Shown here piece by piece: positions 1 through 21,421 of a stretch of 21,471 bases of DNA; positions within the stretch are counted from its first letter, which is position 1, and each line of letters starts with the position of its first letter. The notes under the pieces are model-generated. The model saw nothing but the letters and a program-made list of their open reading frames with translations. It did not search any database and was not told the DNA's origin. Source of the DNA: a virus; UHGV virus genome UHGV-0123286; one strand, 5' to 3'. Made by a program: the position numbers and the translations under genes.

Positions 1-208
1 CGTTAGCATCAGCAAGCTCCTTTGTGTATCTGGCGTCGAGTTCTGCTACATCACGTTGACGCTTCTGCATATCAGCGATGATGGATGTGGCTTTATCGCG
101 CTGGTCTTTGTAGGCGATGGCGTTATTACGGTAATGATTAACAGCCCATGACAGACAGACGATGATGCAGATAATCAGAGCGGAGATAATCGCGGTTACT
201 CTGCTCAT
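1..208 (-). CDS. Rz: Spanin Rz, N-terminal part (gene runs off window edge)
   Basis: Minus-strand ATG at 208..206 overlaps R stop (ATGA); translation MSRVTAII... and ...RQRDVAE match remembered lambda Rz. Confidence 0.8.
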
Positions 209-2942: not shown

Positions 2943-3550
2943 GCAGCCTCACTTCTGCTGTTTCGCAGTTTTTTAAGTTTCTGTTGATACTCCGCCTTGA
3001 TGGACCTGCACTCTTCGCCAGTCCAGCGATGGCGGTTATGGTTTGATTCGATTTCGTCTACTGCTTCCTGCCCGATGCGATTAATCAGTTCGACGCGATA
3101 CGGAACGAGATTTCCGCTTTTGTGCTGGTTGCACACCACGCATTGCTTGTGAATATTGCGTTCATCAAATCGGAGTTGAGGTGCCGCAGCAGTTGTCCGG
3201 TAATGTCCGGCATCCCACTGAGCAGACGTGAGCGTTCCGCACGAGATACATGGTAAGTCGCGGTCTCTTTCTCTGATGAAGGCGTTTACGGCTTGTTGGG
3301 CTTGTTTAATCCAGTAACTGCGGGGCTTTAAAGCGAGTTTTCGAATCTTAATTTTATCTTTCTGTTTCTGCTCCTCTCGTCGTCGTTTCTTCTCTGCTGC
3401 TTTTTCCGCTTTTTCGCGTTCTTTGCTTCGTCGTTCGAGTGCTATCTTGGTTCCACACTCTGGAGAGCACCACCACTGATTAGCGAATGCAGGGTGAAAC
3501 CATTCCCGACATTCATCGTTTTTACATCGTCTTCGCGCTGGTTTAGCCAT
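2939..3550 (-). CDS. ninG: NinG (Rap) recombination-associated structure-specific endonuclease, 203 aa
   Basis: Translation [33 protein letters not shown]... matches lambda NinG/orf204; Cys-rich zinc motifs. Confidence 0.85.
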
Positions 3551-3719
3551 CGTCTTCTTCCTCGTACATTGAGCTATTCGGATCGCTCATCAGTTCTGCG
3601 CAGCAGTGCTCACACACGTGAACTTCCAGCACATGCAGCTTCTGACCGCAGTTAGCGCACGTTAAAGCCCGCTCGACGCTTTCTTTCTGGTATTGAAGGG
3701 ATTGGGATGGACTAAGCAT
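3543..3719 (-). CDS. ninF: NinF, 58 aa (start at internal ATG of the listed 77-aa ORF)
   Basis: From internal Met: [40 protein letters not shown]... matches remembered lambda NinF; stop overlaps ninG start. Confidence 0.7.
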
Positions 3720-4113
3720 GGCTTTCACCATTAAAAAGTCGCTTGTAAGCATCAATGTCTCGTTTTGCTTCACCAAGCTTTCGTCTTAATTCCATGTTTT
3801 CTGATTCAAGCTTTTCCATGTCTTGTTGGTATCGATCGCGGTGTTCTTTCCATGCTTTTCGATACGCCTTCATGTATGTCGTATTGGCCTTTCTCTTTGC
3901 CTGACGAACTGCGTGGTGGTTTTTCACAAACCAGTCAGGGTCGTTAAATGCTGCTCTGGCGCATGTATACCAATAATTTGTTGCCTCCCTGTTTAGCCAA
4001 TAAATACTGATAAATGGCAACTGTATCGACACCATTTTTCGTTGAGACTCTTTCTCGCCAAACATGTGCCCTTTTTTGATGCTAAGGCCAAATCCAGGTT
4101 GAATTAAAAGCAT
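3712..4113 (-). CDS. Hypothetical protein, 133 aa, inserted between ninE and ninF (absent from lambda at this position)
   Basis: Start chosen at ATG 4113 with GAGGA RBS 7 nt upstream, directly after ninE stop; basic C-terminal coiled-coil-like region; no family recognised. Confidence 0.45.
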   Translation of the reverse strand: MLLIQPGFGLSIKKGHMFGEKESQRKMVSIQLPFISIYWLNREATNYWYTCARAAFNDPDWFVKNHHAVRQAKRKANTTYMKAYRKAWKEHRDRYQQDMEKLESENMELRRKLGEAKRDIDAYKRLFNGESHA

Positions 4114-4115
4114 TG

Positions 4116-4292
4116 TTATTTCCTCGCACGATGTCTTAGCCACCGGATATCCCACAGGTGAGCCGTGTAATTGAAGGTTTTTACGTCAGATTCTTTGGGG
4201 ATTGGCTTGCGTTTATTTCTGGAGCGTTTCGTTGGAAGGTATTTGCAGTTTTCGCAGATTATGTCGGTGATACTTCGTCGCTGTCTCGCCAC
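4116..4292 (-). CDS. ninE: NinE-like, about 58 aa (GTG start uncertain)
   Basis: Manual minus-strand translation ...[50 protein letters not shown]... matches remembered lambda NinE; below ORF-track length threshold. Confidence 0.6.
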
Positions 4293-4432
4293 ACGTCCTC
4301 CTTTTCCTGCGGTAGTGGTAACACCCCTGTTGGTGTTCTTTCACACCGGAGACACCATCGACTCCAGCAAGGTTGATTTGGTCGGAAGCGGTTATCTTCT
4401 TTGCATTCACCGCACCGATAACATCGCATCAT
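4259..4432 (-). CDS. ninD: NinD, 57 aa zinc-ribbon protein
   Basis: Manual translation [34 protein letters not shown]...; ATG overlaps ninC stop (ATGA); 57 aa equals lambda orf57. Confidence 0.7.
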
Positions 4433-5301
4433 GCAGCTTCCCTCCCGAAGTCGAAATCAAGCTGCCCTCCAAATATTTCGCATGACTCAGAACAAGAGCC
4501 GGTATCGAATCTTTTAGCTCGTACCATGTCCTGATACAGGGCTTGATAATCATTTTCTGAATACATTTTCGCGATACCGTCCAGCGACATTCTTCCTCGG
4601 TACATAATCTCCTTTGGCGTTTCCCGATGTCCGTCACGCACATGGGATCCCGTGATGACCTCATTAAAAACACGCTGCAATCCCTCCTCATCTTTGCAGG
4701 CAAGTCCGATTTTTTGCGTTGATTTTTTAATGCAGAATATGCAGTTACCGAGATGTTCCGGTATTTGCAAATCGAATGGTTGTTGCTTCCACCATGCGAG
4801 GATATCTTCCTTCTCAAAGTCTGACAGTTCAGCAAGATATCTGATTCCAGGATTTGGCTTTAGCCGCTTCGGTTCATCAGCTCTGATGCCAATCCACGTG
4901 GTGTAATTCCCTCGCCCGAAATGGTCATCACAGTATTTGGTGAAGGGAACGAGTTTTAATCTGTCAGTGCAGAACGCGCCGCCGACGTATGGAGTGCCAT
5001 ATTTCTTTACCATATCGATAAATGGCTTCAGAACAGGCATTTTCGTCTGAATATCCTTTGGTTCCCATACCTTATAACCATTTGACTGTCCAAGCTCTGG
5101 GTTGATATCAACCTGCAATACAGTGAGCGGTATATCCCAGAACTTCACAACTTCGCGGATAAACCGATATGTCATCGGGTGTTCACAACCTGTATCCATG
5201 AAAACGTAATGCACGTCTTCACCTGCCTGTCGCTTTTGCTCCATTAGCCAGAGCAAATATGCTGACGTCCTGCCACCGGAGAAACTAACGACATTTATCA
5301 T
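4429..5301 (-). CDS. ninC: NinC (PAPS-reductase-like fold), 290 aa; start at internal Met of listed ORF
   Basis: From [24 protein letters not shown]... matches lambda orf290; SGGxxS P-loop-like motif. Confidence 0.85.
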
Positions 5302-5811: not shown

Positions 5812-7188
5812 TCATACGTCAGCCCCTTGTGCATATCGTCTGCCACGCGCAGCAGGTGCATTTGATGCTGTGCAAATCTGTCTGGCTTCATCCTGGTCAC
5901 ATGCCACAAAGTGTCCGTTACAGAACCGCTGGTAAACCGTACCAAGCGAGCCAAAACGGTTTTTCGTCACAATGATTTCAGCAAATGGCGCGGCGCTACT
6001 GTTCTCGTCATATACCGCTTCCCGATAGAGCATGATGATTGAGTCTGCGTCCTGTTCAATGCTTCCTGAATCACGCAAATCTGCGTTTGTCGGGCGTTTG
6101 TTTGGTCGCTTCTCAACATCGCGCGAAAGCTGACTCAGGGAGATAACTGGCGTTTTCAGGTCTTTCGCCATCGCCTTCAGGCTTCCGGAGATGTGAGCAA
6201 TTGCGAGGTCGTTGCGATCTGCTTTCGGCTTCTCAATCAGGCCAAGATAATCCACCATGATTAGTGACAGGTTTGGATTTTCCTGTTTGTGCCGCTCTGC
6301 GATTGAGCGTATTTCTTCGACCGATAACCGCGAAGCATCGACTACCCATACATCCAAATCTGCAAGCTGATTCATGCCGTTAGCAACACGCGCCCATCCT
6401 TCGTCATCCATCGATGCAGGATTTCGCAGCACGCTAACCGACATCCTCCCGGCGTTGGCAATGCTTCGCTCTGCAATCTGCAATGCGCTCATTTCCATTG
6501 AGAAAATCAATACCCCGCGCCGGACGTCAGAACCAGGAATAACGCGGCTTGCAACGCCTTCGGCAATCTTCAGCGCCAGTTCGGTTTTCCCCATACCAGG
6601 ACGAGCAGCGATTATCACCAGGTCTTCCGCGTTCATCCCTCCGGTGATGGCATCAAGTTCTTCGATTCCGGTCTTCAGGGTATCTGACTCTTCTCCGTTC
6701 CTCAGACGCCTGTCAAGCGTGTCAGTGTAGTCAGTTATGATTTCCCCTAACCGTACAGGTTTAACCTCGTCACGGGGCTTTCTAATGGCTGAAAGACGCT
6801 TTACAAGCTCGTCCATCGCCTGACTCGATGCGTCGATGGTTCCGCTCTGAATTGGTTCACGCATTTCATCCATGATTTTCAGCACCAGACGGCGGTGATA
6901 GTTATCCGCGACCATTCCGGCATATCCCTTCAGGTTTGCGGCACTCGGGCAGTTTTTGCTGGTCATCAGGATTGACGTGAAATGCTCCTCTCCGCACGCC
7001 TCGGCAACCATCAGCGCGTCGATTAGGTTTCTGTTTCTCGCCTGCTTGCGGATAACCTCGAAGGCTTTCCGGTAGAGCGGAATTGAAAACGCTTCCGGCT
7101 CCAGCGTTGCCAGAACGTCGCTGGCGGTTGGTGTTAATCCACCAATCAGCAGGCCACCGATAACGCTCGCTTCGATATCCTGTTTCAT
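5812..7188 (-). CDS. Replicative DnaB-family helicase (P22 gene 12-like), 458 aa
   Basis: Walker A GMGKTELA, Walker [10 protein letters not shown], DnaB-like N-terminus [14 protein letters not shown]; occupies position of lambda P. Confidence 0.9.
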
Positions 7189-8006
7189 GCAATCCCCCTG
7201 TCTGCAAACTTCCCTTCCCGTACTCCCGTTAACGAGTCTTCCCTCAGCAGGTAATCAAAATCGGCCGTCCAGCCCGTGTCGTTGTCTCCGAAGTAAAACG
7301 GCTTGGCCTGATGCACAAACGCCCTGACATACGCTCTGAAACCGTCCACGTTTGGCGTTTTCAGTTGCGGGATGATTTTCTTCAGGCGGCGTTTGCGTTT
7401 CTCGTTGACCGCAACAGCATGTGGAAGTCTGTCACCGACTTCGGTGTTGTAGGCGTTCAGGAAGGATTCGTAGTCGATTCGTTCTGCCTTGCGACGTTCA
7501 GGTTTAACCTGCCCATCGCCGCCCCCGTTAGGGGGTAAGGGGGTATTTGTATTTATTGTCTTTTGTATATTGTCTTTTGTGTTTAGCTGACTTGGCTTAT
7601 ACCCATTAGCCGACTTGGCTAATGTTTTATTAGCTGTTTTAGCTAATGTTAAGCTGTCCTGGCTAATCCACTGCGAAACCACCTTGTTCACTCCGATTTT
7701 CACGCCATCAGCAATGAGGAATTTACGCTCAATAAGCTGGCGCTTGGCAGCGCAAACATGAGTGTGATGAATACCTGTCATGGCTGCTATCTGCGTGTTT
7801 GTGAGTCGATCCATCGGCTTATTGAATCCGTATGTCTTGCGCATGATAGCGAGCATCACCTTCAACTGCCTGACGGTTAAATCAGCCATCAGCAGACTGT
7901 CGGTAATCTCGTTAGCAACGCGCATGAAACCATCTTCGGTATCTGCCACGCGATGCTCCACGACCTCCAGTTGAGGCCTGTAATCAGCTAACTTAACGAC
8001 GCCCAT
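7185..8006 (-). CDS. Replication initiator (lambda O / P22 gene 18-like), 273 aa
   Basis: N-terminal region [29 protein letters not shown] resembles lambda O DNA-binding domain; iterons embedded in the gene; AGGAG RBS. Confidence 0.85.
7545..7664. repeat. Origin of replication: four about 15-bp iterons (TTAGCYGNYTTGGCT) at 21-24 bp spacing (7583..7664) flanked by an AT-rich segment (7545..7580)
   Basis: Direct repeats ttagctgacttggct / ttagccgacttggct / ttagctgttttagct / aagctgtcctggct plus AT-rich tract, inside the initiator gene as in lambda ori. Confidence 0.6.
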
Positions 8007-8188: not shown

Positions 8189-8467
8189 TCAGGCCTCAAA
8201 ACTGTTGCAGCAGTCTTGAGGCTTTTCTTTTGTCAGCACCATGGCTACTTTCTTTGCCAGCTCTGCTAATTCCTCGTCTTCAACACCCCACTCCAGCACA
8301 GCCAGAAGCATGGCCATCTTTGGGATAAAGCTGTCTTTCCATCGCGAAATTTGCGATTCATTAATCCCTAATGCATCAGCAACCTTTCGCTGACCACGTA
8401 CAGCAATTCGATTTAGGATGTTGCTTGTAATTGCATTCGCTTTCTTGCGAGTACTTGTAAGTTGCAT
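8189..8467 (-). CDS. cII: CII-like transcriptional activator, 92 aa
   Basis: Motifs SQISRWK and MLLAVLEWGV shared with lambda CII; upstream AAGGAAATACTTACAT-ATG matches the lambda cII initiation region. Confidence 0.8.
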   Translation of the reverse strand: MQLTSTRKKANAITSNILNRIAVRGQRKVADALGINESQISRWKDSFIPKMAMLLAVLEWGVEDEELAELAKKVAMVLTKEKPQDCCNSFEA

Positions 8468-8525
8468 ATGTAAGTATTTCCTTAACAAATAAGAAGTTAT
8501 GCGCATCAACTTATGCGCGTTGTAT

Positions 8526-8569
8526 TCCCGCATTTCGGCGGGAATGAGGACCATGACTGTTAAAGAGCG
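8526..8569 (-). promoter_or_regulatory. nutR: boxA CGCTCTTTAA (8569..8560) and boxB hairpin TCCCGC-CGAAAT-GCGGGA (8543..8526)
   Basis: boxA consensus directly after cro stop; boxB inverted repeat identical to the one at nutL. Confidence 0.65.
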
Positions 8570-8575
8570 GTGTTA

Positions 8576-8770
8576 CTATTTGTTTTTCTTGTTGCTTGGG
8601 AAAGGACGAACTTCCTCTCCAATCACACTGCCATCAGGCTTTACCGTAACCATGATGTTACGGCCTGCCAGAATGGCCTTGCTGATAGCGCACTGGATTA
8701 CACCAAAGTCACTGGCTGCTTTAGCCTGTCCATGGATTTTGGCGTAATCGGCAAGTGTCATTCGAATCAT
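8576..8770 (-). CDS. cro: Cro repressor (lambda-Cro fold, different specificity), 64 aa
   Basis: From [39 protein letters not shown]...PFPSNKK; similar to lambda Cro in length and C-terminus; GGAGAG RBS. Confidence 0.8.
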
Positions 8771-8799
8771 ATGCACTCTCCGTTATTAACCATGAACAA

Positions 8800-8869
8800 A
8801 GAATACTACAGGTATTCAAATCAATCAATACTCAGGGTATTTTTAGTTTAAGTACCTTAGCTATTAGAA
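8800..8869. promoter_or_regulatory. OR operator/promoter region: OR1 8803..8815, OR2 8828..8840, candidate OR3 8852..8864; pR (-10 8805..8800, -35 8828..8823); pRM (-10 TAGAAT 8864..8869)
   Basis: Two 13-bp palindromes ATACnnnnnGTAT 25 bp apart plus a weaker third; divergent promoter hexamers overlapping them; cI ATG 7 nt after the pRM -10 suggests a leaderless transcript. Confidence 0.55.
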
Positions 8870-8876
8870 TTAAGCT

Positions 8877-9593
8877 ATGGAAAATAAAAAATCACTGACG
8901 ACAGAACAGCTCGAAGACGCTAAGCGGCTTAAGGCTTTGTATGAGTCAAAAAAGAAAGAATTGGGAATAACCCAATACTCAATCGCTGATGAACTGGGTA
9001 TCACCCAAGGAGCGGTAGGGCATTATCTTAATGGCAGAAACGCGCTAAACGTTGAGGTTGCATCTGGTTTTGCACGATTGTTGCAAGTCTCAATTGCTGA
9101 TTTTAGCCAGTCAATTGCTGCCAAGGTTGCAGAACAGGCAGAAAGCCTTAAGAGCGATGCCAACGTAAGGTATGCAGGGGAATACAGAGCAGGAAAGAGG
9201 TATCCGGTGTTAAGCAGTATCCAGGCTGGCTCGTGGTGTGAAGCATGCGAACCATACACCATTAAAGACATAGATGTTTGGCTTGAGTCTGACGCGCATA
9301 TTCAAGGTAATGCGTTCTGGCTTAAAGTGGAAGGTGATTCAATGACGGCACCGGTTGGGTTAAGCATTCCAGAGGGAACATTCGTTCTTTTCGATACCGG
9401 AAGGGAGGCGATCAACGGCAGCTTGGTCATAGCAAAACTTTCTGACTCTAACGAAGCAACATTCAAGAAGCTGATAATCGACGGCGGAAATAAATACCTC
9501 AAGGGACTTAACCCTGCATGGCCTCTCGTGCCAATCAATGGAAACTGCAAGATTATAGGCGTTGCAATTGAGACAAAACTAAGGCTGGTTTGA
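8877..9593 (+). CDS. cI: CI repressor (HTH N-domain plus S24 LexA-like autocleavage domain), 238 aa
   Basis: Overall alignment to lambda CI (LTQEQLEDARRLKAIYE.., C-terminal FWLEVEGNSMTAP.., FKKLI motifs) with divergent recognition helix. Confidence 0.9.
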   Translation: MENKKSLTTEQLEDAKRLKALYESKKKELGITQYSIADELGITQGAVGHYLNGRNALNVEVASGFARLLQVSIADFSQSIAAKVAEQAESLKSDANVRYAGEYRAGKRYPVLSSIQAGSWCEACEPYTIKDIDVWLESDAHIQGNAFWLKVEGDSMTAPVGLSIPEGTFVLFDTGREAINGSLVIAKLSDSNEATFKKLIIDGGNKYLKGLNPAWPLVPINGNCKIIGVAIETKLRLV

Positions 9594-9610
9594 TCACGCA
9601 AGGGGCGCTT

Positions 9611-9979
9611 ATGGTTGGAACCGCTATAGCAAGCTTTTTTGGGATGTTGGCAATCTCGACAATTTACGGCTTAGCGCATGCTTTTATTGCGAAATCTCTA
9701 TCAGAAAAAATAAGCCAGGCTTGGGCGCATAGATTGGCTCGTTTCATGGTTCTAGTGATCATAGCAATACAAGGGATATCTGCATTTATCCTCTATGGAT
9801 CAAGCTTATACCTATTGTATCAAGGCGCGACATTTACGCCTTACACCAGTGATTACGGAACTCTATACGATGGTAGTGAAGACATCTCAATGGCTTGGAT
9901 CGTCTTTGGTTTATCTATGGCCGTGTCTGTTGTAGCAGACATCATTAAGGTAATTCTCGTCTTAACCTTCGCTGACTAA
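9611..9979 (+). CDS. Small integral membrane protein (3 predicted TM helices), 122 aa, immediately downstream of cI
   Basis: Three hydrophobic stretches (VGTAIASFFGMLAISTIYGLAHAFI; LARFMVLVIIAIQGISAFILYG; MAWIVFGLSMAVSVVADIIKVILVL); same strand as cI, 17 nt after its stop. Confidence 0.5.
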   Translation: MVGTAIASFFGMLAISTIYGLAHAFIAKSLSEKISQAWAHRLARFMVLVIIAIQGISAFILYGSSLYLLYQGATFTPYTSDYGTLYDGSEDISMAWIVFGLSMAVSVVADIIKVILVLTFAD

Positions 9980-10111
9980 CTCATAATCCCGGCAGCAATA
10001 GCTATCGGGATCCACTTCACATATCCCGCATAAAAAGCACTGAACAAGCAGACACCGAAAAAATAAATATCCTTTGTATTCATTTGCTTATCATTATTTC
10101 ACCAAAAATAA

Positions 10112-10152
10112 ATACCTTGGGTATTTACACAATAAAATACCTACAGTATTCT
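10112..10152 (+). promoter_or_regulatory. OL operators (10112..10124 ATACCTTGGGTAT; 10137..10149 ATACCTACAGTAT) with pL (-35 TTTACA 10124..10129, -10 TATTCT 10147..10152)
   Basis: Same 13-bp palindrome family and 25-bp spacing as OR; hexamers 17 bp apart, oriented toward N. Confidence 0.55.
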
Positions 10153-10198
10153 TTAGCCATCAGCAGGACGCTGGAAGCCAAACGGAACAGATTGGCAG

Positions 10199-10239
10199 GC
10201 TCTTTAACATTGATGGGATTGTCCCGCCGAAATGCGGGA
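10199..10239 (+). promoter_or_regulatory. nutL: boxA GCTCTTTAACA (10199..10209) and boxB hairpin TCCCGCCGAAATGCGGGA (10222..10239)
   Basis: boxA consensus followed 12 nt later by an inverted repeat identical to nutR boxB, between pL and N. Confidence 0.65.
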
Positions 10240-10346
10240 ACCAAAGAGTAGTTGGCTTTGGGGTGACGTGAAGTGCAGCTGCACGACGGCAACCGGAAGA
10301 TAAGCACCCGGCGCGTCACCGCCAAAGTCAATCATCGGAGGTCAAC

Positions 10347-10652
10347 ATGACAGTAGTCATTACATACCTGGCTGACGATAACGCCAGAAACCGCCGCAGA
10401 GCACGCAGACAGGCTCAACGTGAACAGGCAATGCAAGAGCAGCGACTGGCGCGAAAAATTGCGCTAAAGCTCTCTGGTTGCGTCAGAGCAGACAAAGCAG
10501 CATCACTCGGAAGCCTTCGCTGCAAGAAGGTAGAAGAAGTCGAGAGTAAACAGAATCGTATTTACTACCGCAAGCCACGCAGTGAAATGGGTGTGACTTG
10601 TGTTGGTCGCCAGAAAATGAAATTAGGCAGCAAACCACTGTATGAGGGGTGA
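10347..10652 (+). CDS. N: N antiterminator, 101 aa
   Basis: Arginine-rich motif NARNRRRARRQAQ near N-terminus; C-terminus RIYYRKPRSEMGVTCVGRQKMK resembles lambda N C-terminus; GGAGG RBS. Confidence 0.85.
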   Translation: MTVVITYLADDNARNRRRARRQAQREQAMQEQRLARKIALKLSGCVRADKAASLGSLRCKKVEEVESKQNRIYYRKPRSEMGVTCVGRQKMKLGSKPLYEG

Positions 10653-10934: not shown

Positions 10935-11177
10935 ATGAAAATTAAAACCATGGGCGCAAGCCCATTAAGCGGTCGTATTTTTCAAGGAACATTAAACACT
11001 GAAAAAGGAATGTGGGTAGGAAAGAAAGAAGATGTCACCGAACAGGCAGTTAAGGCAGTAGCTGAACACCTGATGATAAAAAACCAGAAATACGCATACG
11101 AAACGAAGGATGGCAAATGGCTGATAATAAGCCATCAAGTGGTTGATAAATTACCAGAAGATTTTATTGCTGATTAA
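10935..11177 (+). CDS. Hypothetical protein, 80 aa
   Basis: ORF with AAGGTG RBS; no family recognised. Confidence 0.45.
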   Translation: MKIKTMGASPLSGRIFQGTLNTEKGMWVGKKEDVTEQAVKAVAEHLMIKNQKYAYETKDGKWLIISHQVVDKLPEDFIAD

Positions 11178-11343: not shown

Positions 11344-11656
11344 TATGAAATTACGTGTCTGGCATATCCCGCAAGTACCTATGAAACCGTTCATTGTAGA
11401 AGTGGCAAGTGTTGAAGAGGGTGTTCGCCTGATGGATGCACTGGCTGATTATGACGCCTTTCAGTATGACAACAACATCAAGCCTGACTACTGCAATGCT
11501 AACGGCCTTGAGATGTGGGATGAGAGCCTTACCGATGAAGATTTATCAGAGATGGGGCTTACTGATCGCTGGGTGGATTGGTACAGCGAATGCCAATGTT
11601 ACGACGACCCACGTAAATATCTCGAAAGCCTGAAAGAAGAAACATCAGCCGCCTAA
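11344..11656 (+). CDS. Hypothetical acidic protein, 103 aa (start at internal ATG with GGAGGA RBS)
   Basis: ATG 11344 preceded by GACGGAGGAAAT; translation MKLRVWHIPQVPMKPFIVEV...; no family recognised. Confidence 0.5.
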
Positions 11657-17324: not shown

Positions 17325-17543
17325 ATGTACTTAACACTTCAGGAGTGGAACGCACGCCAGCGGCGCCCAAGAAGCCTTGAAACAGTTCGTCGATGGGTAC
17401 GCGAGTGCAGGATATTCCCTCCTCCGGTTAAGGATGGAAGAGAGTATCTGTTCCACGAATCAGCGGTAAAGGTTGACTTAAATCGACCAGTAACAGGTAG
17501 CCTTTTGAAGAGGATCAGAAATGGGAAGAAGGCGAAGTCATGA
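17325..17543 (+). CDS. xis: Excisionase Xis, 72 aa
   Basis: Translation MYLTLQEWNARQRRPRSLETVRRWVRECRIFPPPVKDGREYLFHESAVKVDLNRP... is essentially identical to lambda Xis. Confidence 0.95.
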   Translation: MYLTLQEWNARQRRPRSLETVRRWVRECRIFPPPVKDGREYLFHESAVKVDLNRPVTGSLLKRIRNGKKAKS

Positions 17544-18594
17544 GCGCCGGGATTTACCTCCTAACCTTTATATAAGAAACAATGGATATTACTGCTACAG
17601 GGACCCAAGGACGGGTAAAGAGTTTGGATTAGGCCGAGACAGGAGGATAGCAATCACTGAAGCTATACAGGCCAACATTGAGTTACTCTCAGACAGCGGA
17701 CGCAAATCACTGATAGACAGAATTAAAGGCGGTGACGCAATCACTCTTCATGTGTGGCTTGACCGATATGAAAGAATCCTCACCGAAAGGGGGATCAGGC
17801 CGAAAACTCTACTCGACTACGCCAGCAAAATCAGGGCAATCCGAAGAAAATTGCCGGACAAACCGCTCACTGACATATCAACGAAAGAAGTGGCAGCAAT
17901 GCTAAACACCTACGTAGCAGAAGGTAAAGCAGCTTCCGCAAAATTAATCAGGTCAACCCTTGTTGACGTTTTTCGTGAAGCAATAGCCGAGGGGCATGTG
18001 GCAACGAATCCGGTAACAGCAACCCGTACAGCAAAGTCAGAAGTAAGGCGCTCAAGGCTGACAGCTAATGAGTATGTCGAGATTTACCATGCAGCCGAAC
18101 CTCTCCCTATCTGGCTAAGGCTGGCGATGGATTTGGCCGTCGTTACAGGGCAGAGAGTCGGCGATTTGTGCAGAATGAAATGGTCAGACATAAACGACAA
18201 CCATCTTCACATTGAACAGAGTAAAACAGGGGCTAAACTCGCCATTCCGCTAATGCTAACGATTGACGCGCTCAATATCTCATTGGCTGATACACTACAG
18301 AAATGCAGGGATGCCAGCAGCAGTGAAACTATAATCGCATCAAAGCATCACGATCCGCTTTCCCCGAAAACAGTATCAAAGTATTTTACAAAGGCGAGAA
18401 ATGCATCTGGACTCTCATTTGATGGAAACCCGCCAACATTCCATGAACTGCGTAGCCTGTCAGCGAGGCTATACCGGAACCAGATTGGCGATAAGTTTGC
18501 TCAACGTCTTCTCGGGCATAAATCAGATTCAATGGCGGCGCGGTATAGGGACAGCCGTGGACGGGAATGGGACAAAATTGAAATCGACAAATGA
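17521..18594 (+). CDS. int: Tyrosine integrase (lambda/HK022 Int family), 357 aa
   Basis: Translation MGRRRSHERRDLPPNLYIRNNGYYCYRDPRTGKEFGLGRDRRIAITEAIQANIEL... near-identical to lambda Int N-terminus; catalytic region HELRSLSARLY...HKSD..AARY; start overlaps xis. Confidence 0.95.
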   Translation: MGRRRSHERRDLPPNLYIRNNGYYCYRDPRTGKEFGLGRDRRIAITEAIQANIELLSDSGRKSLIDRIKGGDAITLHVWLDRYERILTERGIRPKTLLDYASKIRAIRRKLPDKPLTDISTKEVAAMLNTYVAEGKAASAKLIRSTLVDVFREAIAEGHVATNPVTATRTAKSEVRRSRLTANEYVEIYHAAEPLPIWLRLAMDLAVVTGQRVGDLCRMKWSDINDNHLHIEQSKTGAKLAIPLMLTIDALNISLADTLQKCRDASSSETIIASKHHDPLSPKTVSKYFTKARNASGLSFDGNPPTFHELRSLSARLYRNQIGDKFAQRLLGHKSDSMAARYRDSRGREWDKIEIDK

Positions 18595-18688: not shown

Positions 18689-21421
18689 GTGAATTTAACC
18701 CTGACCCGAAGACTCTGGATGGGCTTTGCCCTGATGGCGCTGTTAACCCTGACCAGTACCCTGGTGGGATGGTACAACCTGCGCTTTATCAGCCAGGTGG
18801 AAAAAGACAACACTCAGGCATTGATTCCTACCATGAATATGGCGCGCCAGTTGAGCGAAGCCAGCGCCTGGGAACTTTTCGCCGCGCAGAACCTGACCAG
18901 TGCCGATAACGAAAAGATGTGGCAGGCGCAGGGGCGAATGCTCACCGCACAAAGCCTGAAGATTAATGCGTTGCTGCAAGCGTTACGGGAACAAGGTTTT
19001 GACACCACCGCTATTGAACAACAGGAGCAGGAGATCTCCCGTTCGTTACGTCAGCAAGGGGAACTGGTGGGGCAGCGTTTGCAACTTCGCCAGCAACAAC
19101 AGCAACTCAGTCAGCAGATAGTCGCCGCCGCCGATGAAATCGCACGCCTGGCGCAAGGTCAGGCGAATAATGCGGCAACCTCCGCCGGAGCGACCCAGGC
19201 CGGGATTTACGATTTGATCGAACAACATCAGCGTCAAGCCGCAGAAAGTGCACTCGATCGGCTGATTGATATCGATCTTGAGTATGTTAACCAGATGAAT
19301 GAACTGCGCCTTAGCGCCCTGCGGGTGCAGCAAATGGTGATGAATCTGGGGCTGGAACAGATCCAGAAAAATGCGCCAACGCTGGAAAAGCAGCTCAATA
19401 ATGCGGTGAAAATTCTGCAACGTCGGCAAATACGCATTGAAGATCCGGGTGTTCGTACTCAGGTAGCAACAACGTTAACTACCGTTAGCCAATATAGCGA
19501 TTTGCTGGCGCTGTATCAGCAGGACAGTGAAATCAGCAATCACCTGCAAACTCTCGCCCAAAATAACATCGCCCAATTCGCGCAGTTTAGTAGCGAAGTC
19601 AGTCAGCTGGTCGACACCATTGAGCTGCGTAATCAGCACGGGCTGGCACATCTGGAAAAAGCCAGTGCACGCGGGCAATACAGCCTGTTATTGCTGGGAT
19701 TAGTTTCTCTTTGCGCACTGATTCTGATCCTCTGGCGCGTGGTTTATCGCTCAGTCACGCGCCCTCTTGCAGAACAAACGCAGGCGCTGCAACGCTTGCT
19801 GGATGGTGATATCGACTCCCCTTTCCCGGAAACCGCTGGCGTACGGGAACTGGATACCATCGGGCGGCTGATGGATGCGTTTCGCAGCAGTGTTCATGCA
19901 CTGAATCGCCACCGCGAACAGCTGGCGGCGCAGGTCAAAGCGCGTACAGCTGAATTGCAGGAACTGGTGATAGAACACCGACAGGCACGGGCGGAAGCAG
20001 AAAAAGCCAGCCAGGCAAAATCGGCGTTTCTGGCGGCGATGAGCCATGAGATCCGCACACCGCTGTACGGTATTCTCGGCACCGCACAGCTGCTGGCAGA
20101 TAACCCCGCACTTAACGCCCAGCGCGATGATTTGCGGGCGATTACCGACTCTGGTGAATCGTTGCTGACCATCCTCAACGATATTCTCGATTATTCGGCT
20201 ATCGAAGCAGGCGGCAAGAATGTTTCGGTCAGCGATGAACCCTTTGAACCGCGCCCGCTGCTGGAAAGTACCCTGCAATTAATGAACGGAAGGGTGAAAG
20301 GTCGCCCGATTCGCCTGGCAACAGAAATTGCCGACGATGTACCGACTGCGTTAATGGGCGATCCGCGGCGTATTCGTCAGGTCATTACCAACCTGTTGAG
20401 CAACGCCCTGCGTTTCACCGACGAAGGGCACATTATTCTGCGTAGTCGCACTGATGGCGAACAATGGCTGGTCGAAGTGGAAGACAGCGGCTGCGGTATT
20501 GATCCCGCGAAACTGGCTGAAATCTTCCAGCCATTTGTTCAGGTTAGCGGCAAACGCGGCGGCACCGGGCTGGGGCTGACTATCAGTAGCCGTCTGGCCC
20601 AGGCGATGGGCGGCGAATTGAGCGCCACCAGCACGCCGGAGGTTGGAAGCTGTTTTTGTTTACGCGTGCCGTTACGTGTTGCCACTGCACCCGTGCCAAA
20701 AACAGTCAATCAGGCGGTGCGTCTGGACGGTTTACGTTTGCTGTTAATTGAAGATAACCCGCTAACCCAGCGGATTACCGTTGAGATGTTGAACAGCAGT
20801 GGGGCGCAGGTCGTTGCCGTAGGAAATGCCGCGCAGGCTTTAGAGACACTGCAAAATAGTGAACCGTTTGCTGCCGCACTGGTGGATTTTGATCTACCGG
20901 ATATCGACGGCATTACGCTTGCCCGACAACTGGCACAGCAATATCCGTCGCTGGTTTTGATTGGCTTTAGCGCCCATGTCATTGACGAAACACTGCGACA
21001 GCGTACCAGTTCGCTATTTCGCGGGATTATCCCTAAACCGGTGCCGCGTGAAGTGCTCGGTCAATTACTGGCGCACTATCTCCAACTGCAAGTCAATAAC
21101 GATCAACCACTGGATGTATCGCAACTCAATGAAGATGCTCATTTAATGGGGGCGGAGAAGATCCACGAATGGCTGATATTATTTAAACAACATGCCCTGC
21201 CGCTTCTCGATGAAATCGACATTGCCCGCGCCAGTCAGGATAACGAGAAAATAAAGCGTGCCGCACATCAGCTAAAAAGCAGTTGCTCGAGTCTGGGAAT
21301 GCGTAGCGCCAGCCAGCAATGCGCACAACTGGAGCAGCAGCCATTATCTGCCCCCCTTCCACACGAAGAAATTACACGCAGTGTTGCCGCTCTGGAAGCA
21401 TGGTTAATAAGAAAGACCTGA
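18689..21421 (+). CDS. torS: Hybrid sensor histidine kinase TorS (TMAO respiration two-component system), 910 aa
   Basis: Translation [41 protein letters not shown]... with H-box SHEIRTP, receiver domain and C-terminal HPt matches E. coli TorS; GTG start. Confidence 0.95.

Follow-up and report, generated by a model that had tools for sequence, protein, structure and literature searches.

Background

In phage lambda the slot between the repressor gene cI and OL/pL/N is occupied by rexA and rexB. RexB is a small polytopic inner-membrane protein, described as having four transmembrane (TM) helices, and its gene lies on the cI strand with presumed transcription from pRM/pRE. Other small membrane proteins of phages serve exclusion or lysis: T4 Imm and HK97 gp15 are exclusion proteins that act at DNA entry, and class I holins (lambda S, PF05106) span the membrane three times in an N-out/C-in topology. 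The SieA protein of P22 acts at the DNA-entry step as well (PMC10883804). The Salmonella prophage BTP1 carries a single gene, bstA, directly downstream of cI, and transcriptomics has shown that it is read from the cI promoter (PMC7067206, PMC8585504). The same two reports, citing Degnan et al. 2007, describe the cI-N interval as a site of mosaicism that holds accessory loci read from the cI promoter, with rexAB and bstA as examples.

Here we describe the occupant of this interval in an Escherichia coli lambdoid prophage inserted beside torS. The prophage is represented by the UHGV virus genome UHGV-0123286, a stretch of 21,471 nucleotides referred to below as the window. The gene, hkaS, holds the slot that rexA-rexB holds in lambda, as an earlier note on this DNA had proposed; the same note regarded its product as a candidate single-gene exclusion or defence factor.

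Comparison with described systems

HkaS resembles RexB in its slot and strand, in being a small polytopic inner-membrane protein and in its presumed transcription from pRM/pRE, but has three predicted TM helices against the four of RexB. A relationship to RexB was rejected: the hhalign probability is 0.56%, and the Pfam RexB family PF15968, which matched lambda RexB at 8.5e-92 as a control, is silent on HkaS at E<=0.1. There is no rexA beside hkaS, which is the sole open reading frame (ORF) between cI and the operators, and neither PADLOC nor Pfam gives a RexA match. With bstA, found both in BTP1 and in the same slot of one relative surveyed here (L053), hkaS shares the state of a single gene directly downstream of cI; however, BstA, at about 300 aa, is soluble, associates with DNA and comes with the self-immunity element aba, whereas HkaS is a membrane protein of 122 aa, and the PADLOC models reveal no similarity between the two.

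T4 Imm, P22 SieA and HK97 gp15 are, like HkaS, small membrane proteins without enzymatic domains. Their genes sit elsewhere in the respective genomes, unlike hkaS, and no similarity of HkaS to any of the three was detected in sequence or fold. Class I holins match HkaS in approximate size, in the number of TM helices and in the N-out/C-in topology, but HkaS ends in FAD without the charged C-terminal tail typical of holins, and its gene belongs to the repressor operon and not to a late lysis cassette. Searches against curated Imm, Sie, Cor and holin families in Pfam and PHROGs returned no match, the defence models of PADLOC-DB 2.0 gave 0 families at E<=1, and fold searches recovered only generic helical bundles.

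The locus and the hkaS reading frame

The features of the window that bear on the argument are as follows (strand given where assigned).

665-988: holin of the window, class I (lambda S family, PF05106)
5812-7188, minus strand: P/DnaB
7185-8006, minus strand: O
about 8189-8467, minus strand: cII
8444-8483, plus strand: putative pRE, cII-activated, oriented toward cI and hkaS; placed by way of the HK620 annotation (L001 2145-2184, offset +6299)
8576-8776, minus strand: cro
8801-8866: OR1-OR2-OR3 operators and pR/pRM region, from the HK620 annotation; sequence identical in the window
8877-9593, plus strand: cI repressor, 238 aa, HTH_3 (PF01381, E=8e-10) and Peptidase_S24 (PF00717, E=5e-24)
9594-9610, plus strand: cI-hkaS spacer, 17 nt, with the Shine-Dalgarno sequence AAGGGG at 9600-9605 and without a terminator
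9611-9979, plus strand: hkaS, 122 aa, predicted three-TM inner-membrane protein, PHROG 6534
9986-10011, plus strand: stem-loop AUCCCGGCAGCAAUAGCUAUCGGGAU, directly 3' of the hkaS stop, without a U-tract
10065-10152: OL operator set and pL, from the HK620 annotation, a promoter scan and dyad conservation across five lineages
10347-10652, plus strand: N-like antiterminator, 101 aa, first gene of the pL operon (PHROG 271, E=6e-38; Pfam N_peptide weak)
17521-18594: integrase, beside the host gene torS, at whose end the attachment site lies
18689-21421: torS (host)

The N gene forms the far boundary of the cI-N slot. Operator-like dyads lie at 10065-10081, 10110-10126 and 10135-10151, and the promoter scan finds a pL-like TTTACA-17-TATTCT at 10124-10152. 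An Rfam scan of the window found no RNA family.

The earlier note had reported a same-strand ORF 17 nt past the cI stop, and both the coordinates and the spacing are exact: the cI stop is the TGA at 9591-9593, and the 122 codons run from an ATG at 9611 to 9979. AAGGGG lies 5 nt upstream of this ATG. An alternative TTG start at 9590 would give 129 aa; it is unlikely, since the M-[VI]-G-[TY]-A N-terminus and the Shine-Dalgarno sequence before the ATG are conserved in diverged homologues and the upstream frame is not. The length of the protein is kept across homologues of 46-82% identity, with exactly 122 codons at 82, 60, 54, 54 and 52% identity, and the 369-nt gene is retained in copies with a cI-hkaS spacer of 19 or 20 nt.

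Divergence between the window and its 82% homologue (L010) amounts to dS 0.74 and dN 0.10 in hkaS, a dN/dS of 0.135. By this measure of codon substitution hkaS is under purifying selection. The exact length of the homologues, together with such a ratio at such a dS, shows that hkaS is not a chance reading frame. In the same comparison cI has a dS of 0.74 and a dN of 0.022; the equal dS indicates that the two genes share their history, and the protein sequence of HkaS changes 4-5 times faster than that of cI. The GC content of hkaS is 42.0% against 45.6% for cI, which provides no clear signal of foreign origin.

On the minus strand a very hydrophobic ORF of 35 aa (9976-10083), listed as 'putative phage protein' in the HF4s record, converges on the hkaS stop. 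We regard it as a chance ORF that arises from the operator sequence, because its first codons overlap a conserved operator-like dyad and its frame stops after 10 codons in the Salmonella lineage.

Identity and distribution of the HkaS family

The earlier note did not recognise the protein. Sequence databases do contain it, as hkaS of phage HK620 (AAK28867.1) and as PHROG 6534, in neither case with an assigned function: the HK620 record of 2001 lists the ORF as gene hkaS with the product "unknown". HkaS is thus an earlier-annotated ORF and not new as a gene; the positional reasoning applied to it is sound and is supported by the comparisons below. It matches phrog_6534 at E=6.6e-78 over residues 1-122 of 122 and is 96% identical in amino acids to HkaS of HK620. 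Pfam, NCBIfam and PADLOC contain no match, and PHROGs nothing beyond PHROG 6534. The full-text literature covered, which does not include the HK620 genome paper, yielded no paper on hkaS, its accessions or PHROG 6534. The gene has remained without an assigned function since 2001. HK620, a model phage, has it in its immunity region, and Stx-converting phages carry it too.

HK620, mEpX2, HK140 and HK630 have immunity regions 98.7-98.9% identical to that of the window, and their annotations list the gene as hkaS or unknown. Positions 8300-10500 are 96.5-100% identical to HK620, with mosaic junctions at 8250-8300, inside cII, and at about 10500, inside N; the N ORF encodes 101 aa in the window, against 90 aa in HK620. 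No stretch of the shared module is less similar to HK620 than hkaS (96.5% identity, against 99-100% for cI and cro), and S42L and I47V are private to HkaS of the window. The module is carried by the P22-like podoviruses HK620 and HF4s, by HK140 (Hendrixvirinae), by HK630 and mEpX2, and also by the Stx-type phages phi296 and phi367 and Stx2c-converting phages. Its presence in phages of different morphotypes shows that it is not tied to one virion or entry apparatus.

A word-indexed search of 5.8 billion proteins recovered 12 HkaS clusters with about 650 member sequences, nearly all of them full length, and an exhaustive HMM search of 1.84 billion cluster representatives gave two matches, one of which is a 44-aa fragment. 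Where a source is named, it is Escherichia, Hafnia, Salmonella or a Buttiauxella metagenome-assembled genome; the remaining sequences derive from metagenome assemblies. The family does not extend beyond prophages of Enterobacterales. Of 5426 complete E. coli genomes, 146 (2.7%) carry hkaS, in 147 places that are all chromosomal. The HK620-type cI is likewise found in 146 genomes and 147 places, at least 99% identical in 145 of the 146. The integrase-torS junction of the window recurs in 190 of the 5426 genomes.

One record departs from the intact form. In HF4s (L094, MT833387) a 1-nt deletion in an A6 run of hkaS, equivalent to 9703-9708 of the window, shifts the frame, and only a C-terminal ORF of 77 aa was called by the annotators. 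The deletion could mark a true pseudogene or stem from an error in sequencing the homopolymer. Cluster P0007 resembles a frameshifted variant of the HF4s kind.

Conserved position and operon architecture

The order of leftward cro, rightward cI and hkaS, and then OL-pL-N is found in every diverged homologue that could be placed, across six lineages. These include that of the window and HK620, the Salmonella lineage (L004-L007), the 52% lineage (L008), the Hafnia-type lineage (L009-L011) and L039; a further homologue, L012, lies on a 1.2-kb contig that includes only the end of an upstream gene followed by hkaS.

We searched 80 relatives of cI, one genome per species at 40-76% identity to the repressor of the window, with an HkaS profile (hmmsearch). 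The only hit was in L039 (E=7e-47), from an uncultured Buttiauxella sp. HkaS at this locus (L039 3001-4043) forms a lineage of its own, the sixth, with 46-55% identity to the rest. In the repressor there, an unrelated N-terminal DNA-binding domain (15-25% identity) is joined, through a mosaic junction in the linker of cI, to an S24 C-terminal domain that is 84-92% identical to those of the other lineages; the operators differ as well. Since the DNA-binding domain has been exchanged in L039, hkaS is linked to the adjacent C-terminal domain of cI and not to one immunity specificity. On the gene orders and alignments compared, hkaS is not freely shuffling cargo, being attached to one type of repressor C-terminal domain across the six lineages. 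The strictness of this linkage has a trivial explanation: flanked by cI and OL, hkaS is part of a module that has to be passed on as a unit.

In all lineages the cI-hkaS spacer measures 17-20 nt and contains an AAGGA/GAGGG motif. No terminator is found on the plus strand between cI and the hkaS stop, and the 17-nt spacer of the window leaves no room for one. A stem-loop follows the hkaS stop in every lineage. Its sequence is common to the window, HK620 and L010; L004 and L008 have unrelated hairpins, and hkaS of L039 is followed by a canonical rho-independent terminator. In the window the stem-loop (9986-10011) may form the 3' end of the cI-hkaS transcript or stabilise it. The HK620 record annotates pRE, OR1-3, OL1-3, pL and nutL, and places 'tIMM; termination of cI transcript' after hkaS. 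The label covers 10061-10091 of the window; the actual end of the transcript may be the GC-rich hairpin at 9986-10011. Given a spacer without a terminator, a stem-loop or terminator after hkaS, and the agreement of the HK620 annotation, we infer that hkaS would be co-transcribed with cI from pRM and pRE.

The cI ATG is preceded at a distance of 5 nt by TAGAAT (8866-8871), a placement which suggests that the cI message from pRM is probably leaderless, as in lambda. If so, hkaS, which has its own Shine-Dalgarno sequence, could be translated no less efficiently than cI.

The HK620 record puts OL3 at 10088-10104. However, the sequence AAATATCCTTTGTATTC at 10065-10081 resembles the third operator dyad; like OL1 and OL2, it is kept in each of the five lineages.

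Alternative occupants of the cI-N slot

The claim that this slot is a hotspot for exclusion and abortive-infection genes agrees with the literature, and the survey of 80 relatives supports it with rexAB, BstA, PDC-S42, PDC-M63A and PDC-M03A. The ten largest post-cI ORFs among the relatives were scanned against PADLOC and Pfam, and known or candidate defence matches were obtained for 5 of the 10. The slot contents identified were the following.

L015: RexA
L053: BstA
L022: PDC-S42
L027: PDC-M63A/DUF6932; L055 has a similar 158-aa protein, which was not scanned
L060: PDC-M03A, a HipA-like kinase
L071: an M78 peptidase that also matches CapP

The L015 locus (3001-5110, Siccibacter colletis) is instructive. 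Its repressor is 76% identical to cI of the window and 42% to lambda cI, and the rexA-rexB pair behind it has 98% identity to that of lambda. Since a repressor of the HK620 family here carries rexAB of lambda type, a single repressor family has either rexAB or hkaS as its cargo, and L015 reads, by these identities, as a clean cassette exchange in the cI-N slot.

The slot ORFs are otherwise very diverse among the relatives of cI, some of which have none. Small envelope proteins are frequent and include single-TM peptides, a lipoprotein-like family of 135 aa, a four-TM protein with DUF1275, and an unrelated three-TM protein, also of 122 aa, with a CxxC zinc-ribbon motif. Several slot proteins, such as those of 376 aa in L025 and 266 aa in L078, have no match in PADLOC or Pfam. 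The loci with cargo behind related repressors include L017, L066-L068, L076 and L084. Lying on the cI strand between the cI stop and OL, as repressor-operon accessory genes do, hkaS is best described as a sequence-unrelated addition to the known class of repressor-linked prophage accessory (moron) genes.

HkaS as a membrane protein

The prediction of three TM helices was reproduced with Kyte-Doolittle windows, which detect hydrophobic segments at residues about 3-27 (marginal), 45-70 and 94-119 (both strong). The loop at 28-44 contains four Lys or Arg residues, and the loop at 71-93 contains four Asp or Glu residues and no Lys or Arg. HkaS is predicted to be N-out/C-in because these loop charges follow the positive-inside rule; the N-terminus and loop 2 would then be periplasmic, and loop 1 and the C-terminus cytoplasmic. 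An AlphaFold2 model built from an 8-sequence alignment (mean pLDDT 89.7, pTM 0.76) has helices at 2-29, 31-38, 41-74 and 89-121, that is, three long helices and a short amphipathic helix (31-38), with a tiny beta-hairpin in loop 2. About 40 residues lie outside the membrane.

Thirty-five positions are invariant in the eight aligned sequences. They include polar residues within the TM helices, namely Q54 in TM2 and S106, D110 and K113 in TM3, and the C-terminus ILVLTFAD is perfectly conserved. The periplasmic loop is the least conserved part of the protein, with 17% of its positions invariant against 53% in the cytoplasmic loop. Low conservation of a part facing the periplasm lends weak support to an exclusion role. 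The divergence may reflect mere lower constraint, as the closest pair, the window and its 82% homologue, displays no enrichment of change in this loop. In the deeper comparisons dS is saturated, and positive selection in the loop is not claimed. The most conserved parts, loop 1 and the C-terminus, are predicted to face the cytoplasm, so that a cytoplasmic partner, of host or phage origin, fits at least as well as a periplasmic contact with the virion.

Proposed function and alternatives

An anti-phage role is proposed because related repressors have anti-phage genes in this slot, and a single-gene membrane factor of 122 residues is a reasonable candidate for exclusion or defence. Our preferred reading, put forward tentatively, is that HkaS may stop superinfecting phages at the level of the membrane. 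The lysogen would make HkaS continuously, with translation starting from the Shine-Dalgarno sequence of hkaS on the cI transcript from pRM/pRE. Equipped with a basic, amphipathic cytoplasmic loop, an acidic periplasmic loop and the invariant C-terminal ILVLTFAD, it could passively block heteroimmune phages at the inner membrane, interfering either with the translocation of their genomes across it or with a host factor of that membrane on which incoming phages depend, in a mode likened to those of T4 Imm, P22 SieA, HK97 gp15 and DicB. Guilt by position is only probabilistic, as the slot also holds DUF1275 and several unmatched proteins without a known defence role. The published lysogen data that bear on this module are limited to Hf4s, whose lysogens are sensitive to G7C and phiKT and leave the development of DT57C unaffected (bioRxiv 10.1101/2021.06.09.447823); we do not take this as evidence, because hkaS in the HF4s record is frameshifted in the A6 run.

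One alternative is an abortive-infection effector: once a superinfecting phage disturbs the cell, HkaS would oligomerise into a pore or otherwise collapse the membrane potential, as a one-protein substitute for RexAB or a holin-like suicide device. The position of hkaS in the rexAB slot, with one repressor family carrying either cargo, is compatible with this, as are a topology and length (about 100-120 aa) resembling class I holins and the invariant Q54, S106, D110 and K113 of TM2 and TM3, which would be expected of a channel lining or a gating site. However, HkaS is related to neither RexB nor the holin families and lacks the charged cytoplasmic tail typical of the latter; no sensor domain or partner gene accompanies it, only about 80 nt separating hkaS from the operators; and a constitutive pore-former would need tight control, for which no element is visible. 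An effector of this kind is therefore rather unlikely, and a passive constitutive block is favoured over a triggered pore since HkaS has neither a sensing domain nor a partner gene. The bolder version, in which HkaS alone does the job of RexAB by sensing membrane perturbation through a network of the invariant D110, K113 and Q54 and shutting down the cell or the entry channel, strikes us as improbable; were it true, HkaS would found a new minimal family of prophage immunity proteins. Among functions unrelated to phages, a lysogenic-conversion factor is unlikely; it would tune a host transporter, a stress response or the physiology of the envelope to the advantage of the lysogen in its niche. 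Morons expressed in lysogens include non-defence genes such as lom and bor of lambda, some of the genes found in this slot lack a defence annotation, the family is restricted to prophages of Enterobacterales, and its conserved, cytoplasmic face is compatible with a conserved host membrane partner. Yet the characterised occupants of the cI-N slot are mostly anti-phage, and HkaS has no similarity to known regulators of transporters or stress systems.

A role in the life cycle of the phage itself, through repressor stability, induction, lysis timing or the establishment of lysogeny, might be read from the constancy with which hkaS accompanies one type of cI C-terminal domain (84-92% identical) in six lineages, even in L039, and from its presence, by position, on the transcripts of both the establishment and the maintenance promoter. 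Adjacency alone accounts for the linkage, though, and repressors 64-76% identical work with other genes in the slot or with none, which implies that the switch does not need HkaS; HF4s, too, lysogenises and grows normally with hkaS frameshifted in its record. We consider such a role quite doubtful. As to a non-functional hitch-hiking ORF trapped in the immunity module, the tiny and taxonomically narrow family and the frameshift in the A6 run of one phage record are what one might expect of it, but this is barely credible in view of a dN/dS of 0.135 at dS 0.74, of 122 codons kept at 46-60% identity, of 35 invariant positions in eight sequences with a perfectly conserved C-terminus, and of roughly 650 members that are nearly all full length.

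If HkaS is active, it would represent a new exclusion or defence family missed by current defence-finding profiles, with relevance to the prediction of host range in E. coli phage therapy and to the question of why lambdoid immunity modules carry cargo. If it is inactive against phages, it provides a counter-example to guilt by position in the cI-N hotspot.

Two further genes of the pL operon, both on the plus strand, can be mentioned. An 80-aa protein with DUF7446 (E=1e-28) is encoded at 10935-11177 and has a weak PADLOC match to DndE (E=0.0054). A homologue of P22 gene 17 lies at 11345-11656 and matches PF17420, 'Superinfection exclusion gene product 17' (E=7e-56), as a second exclusion-related gene carried by the prophage.
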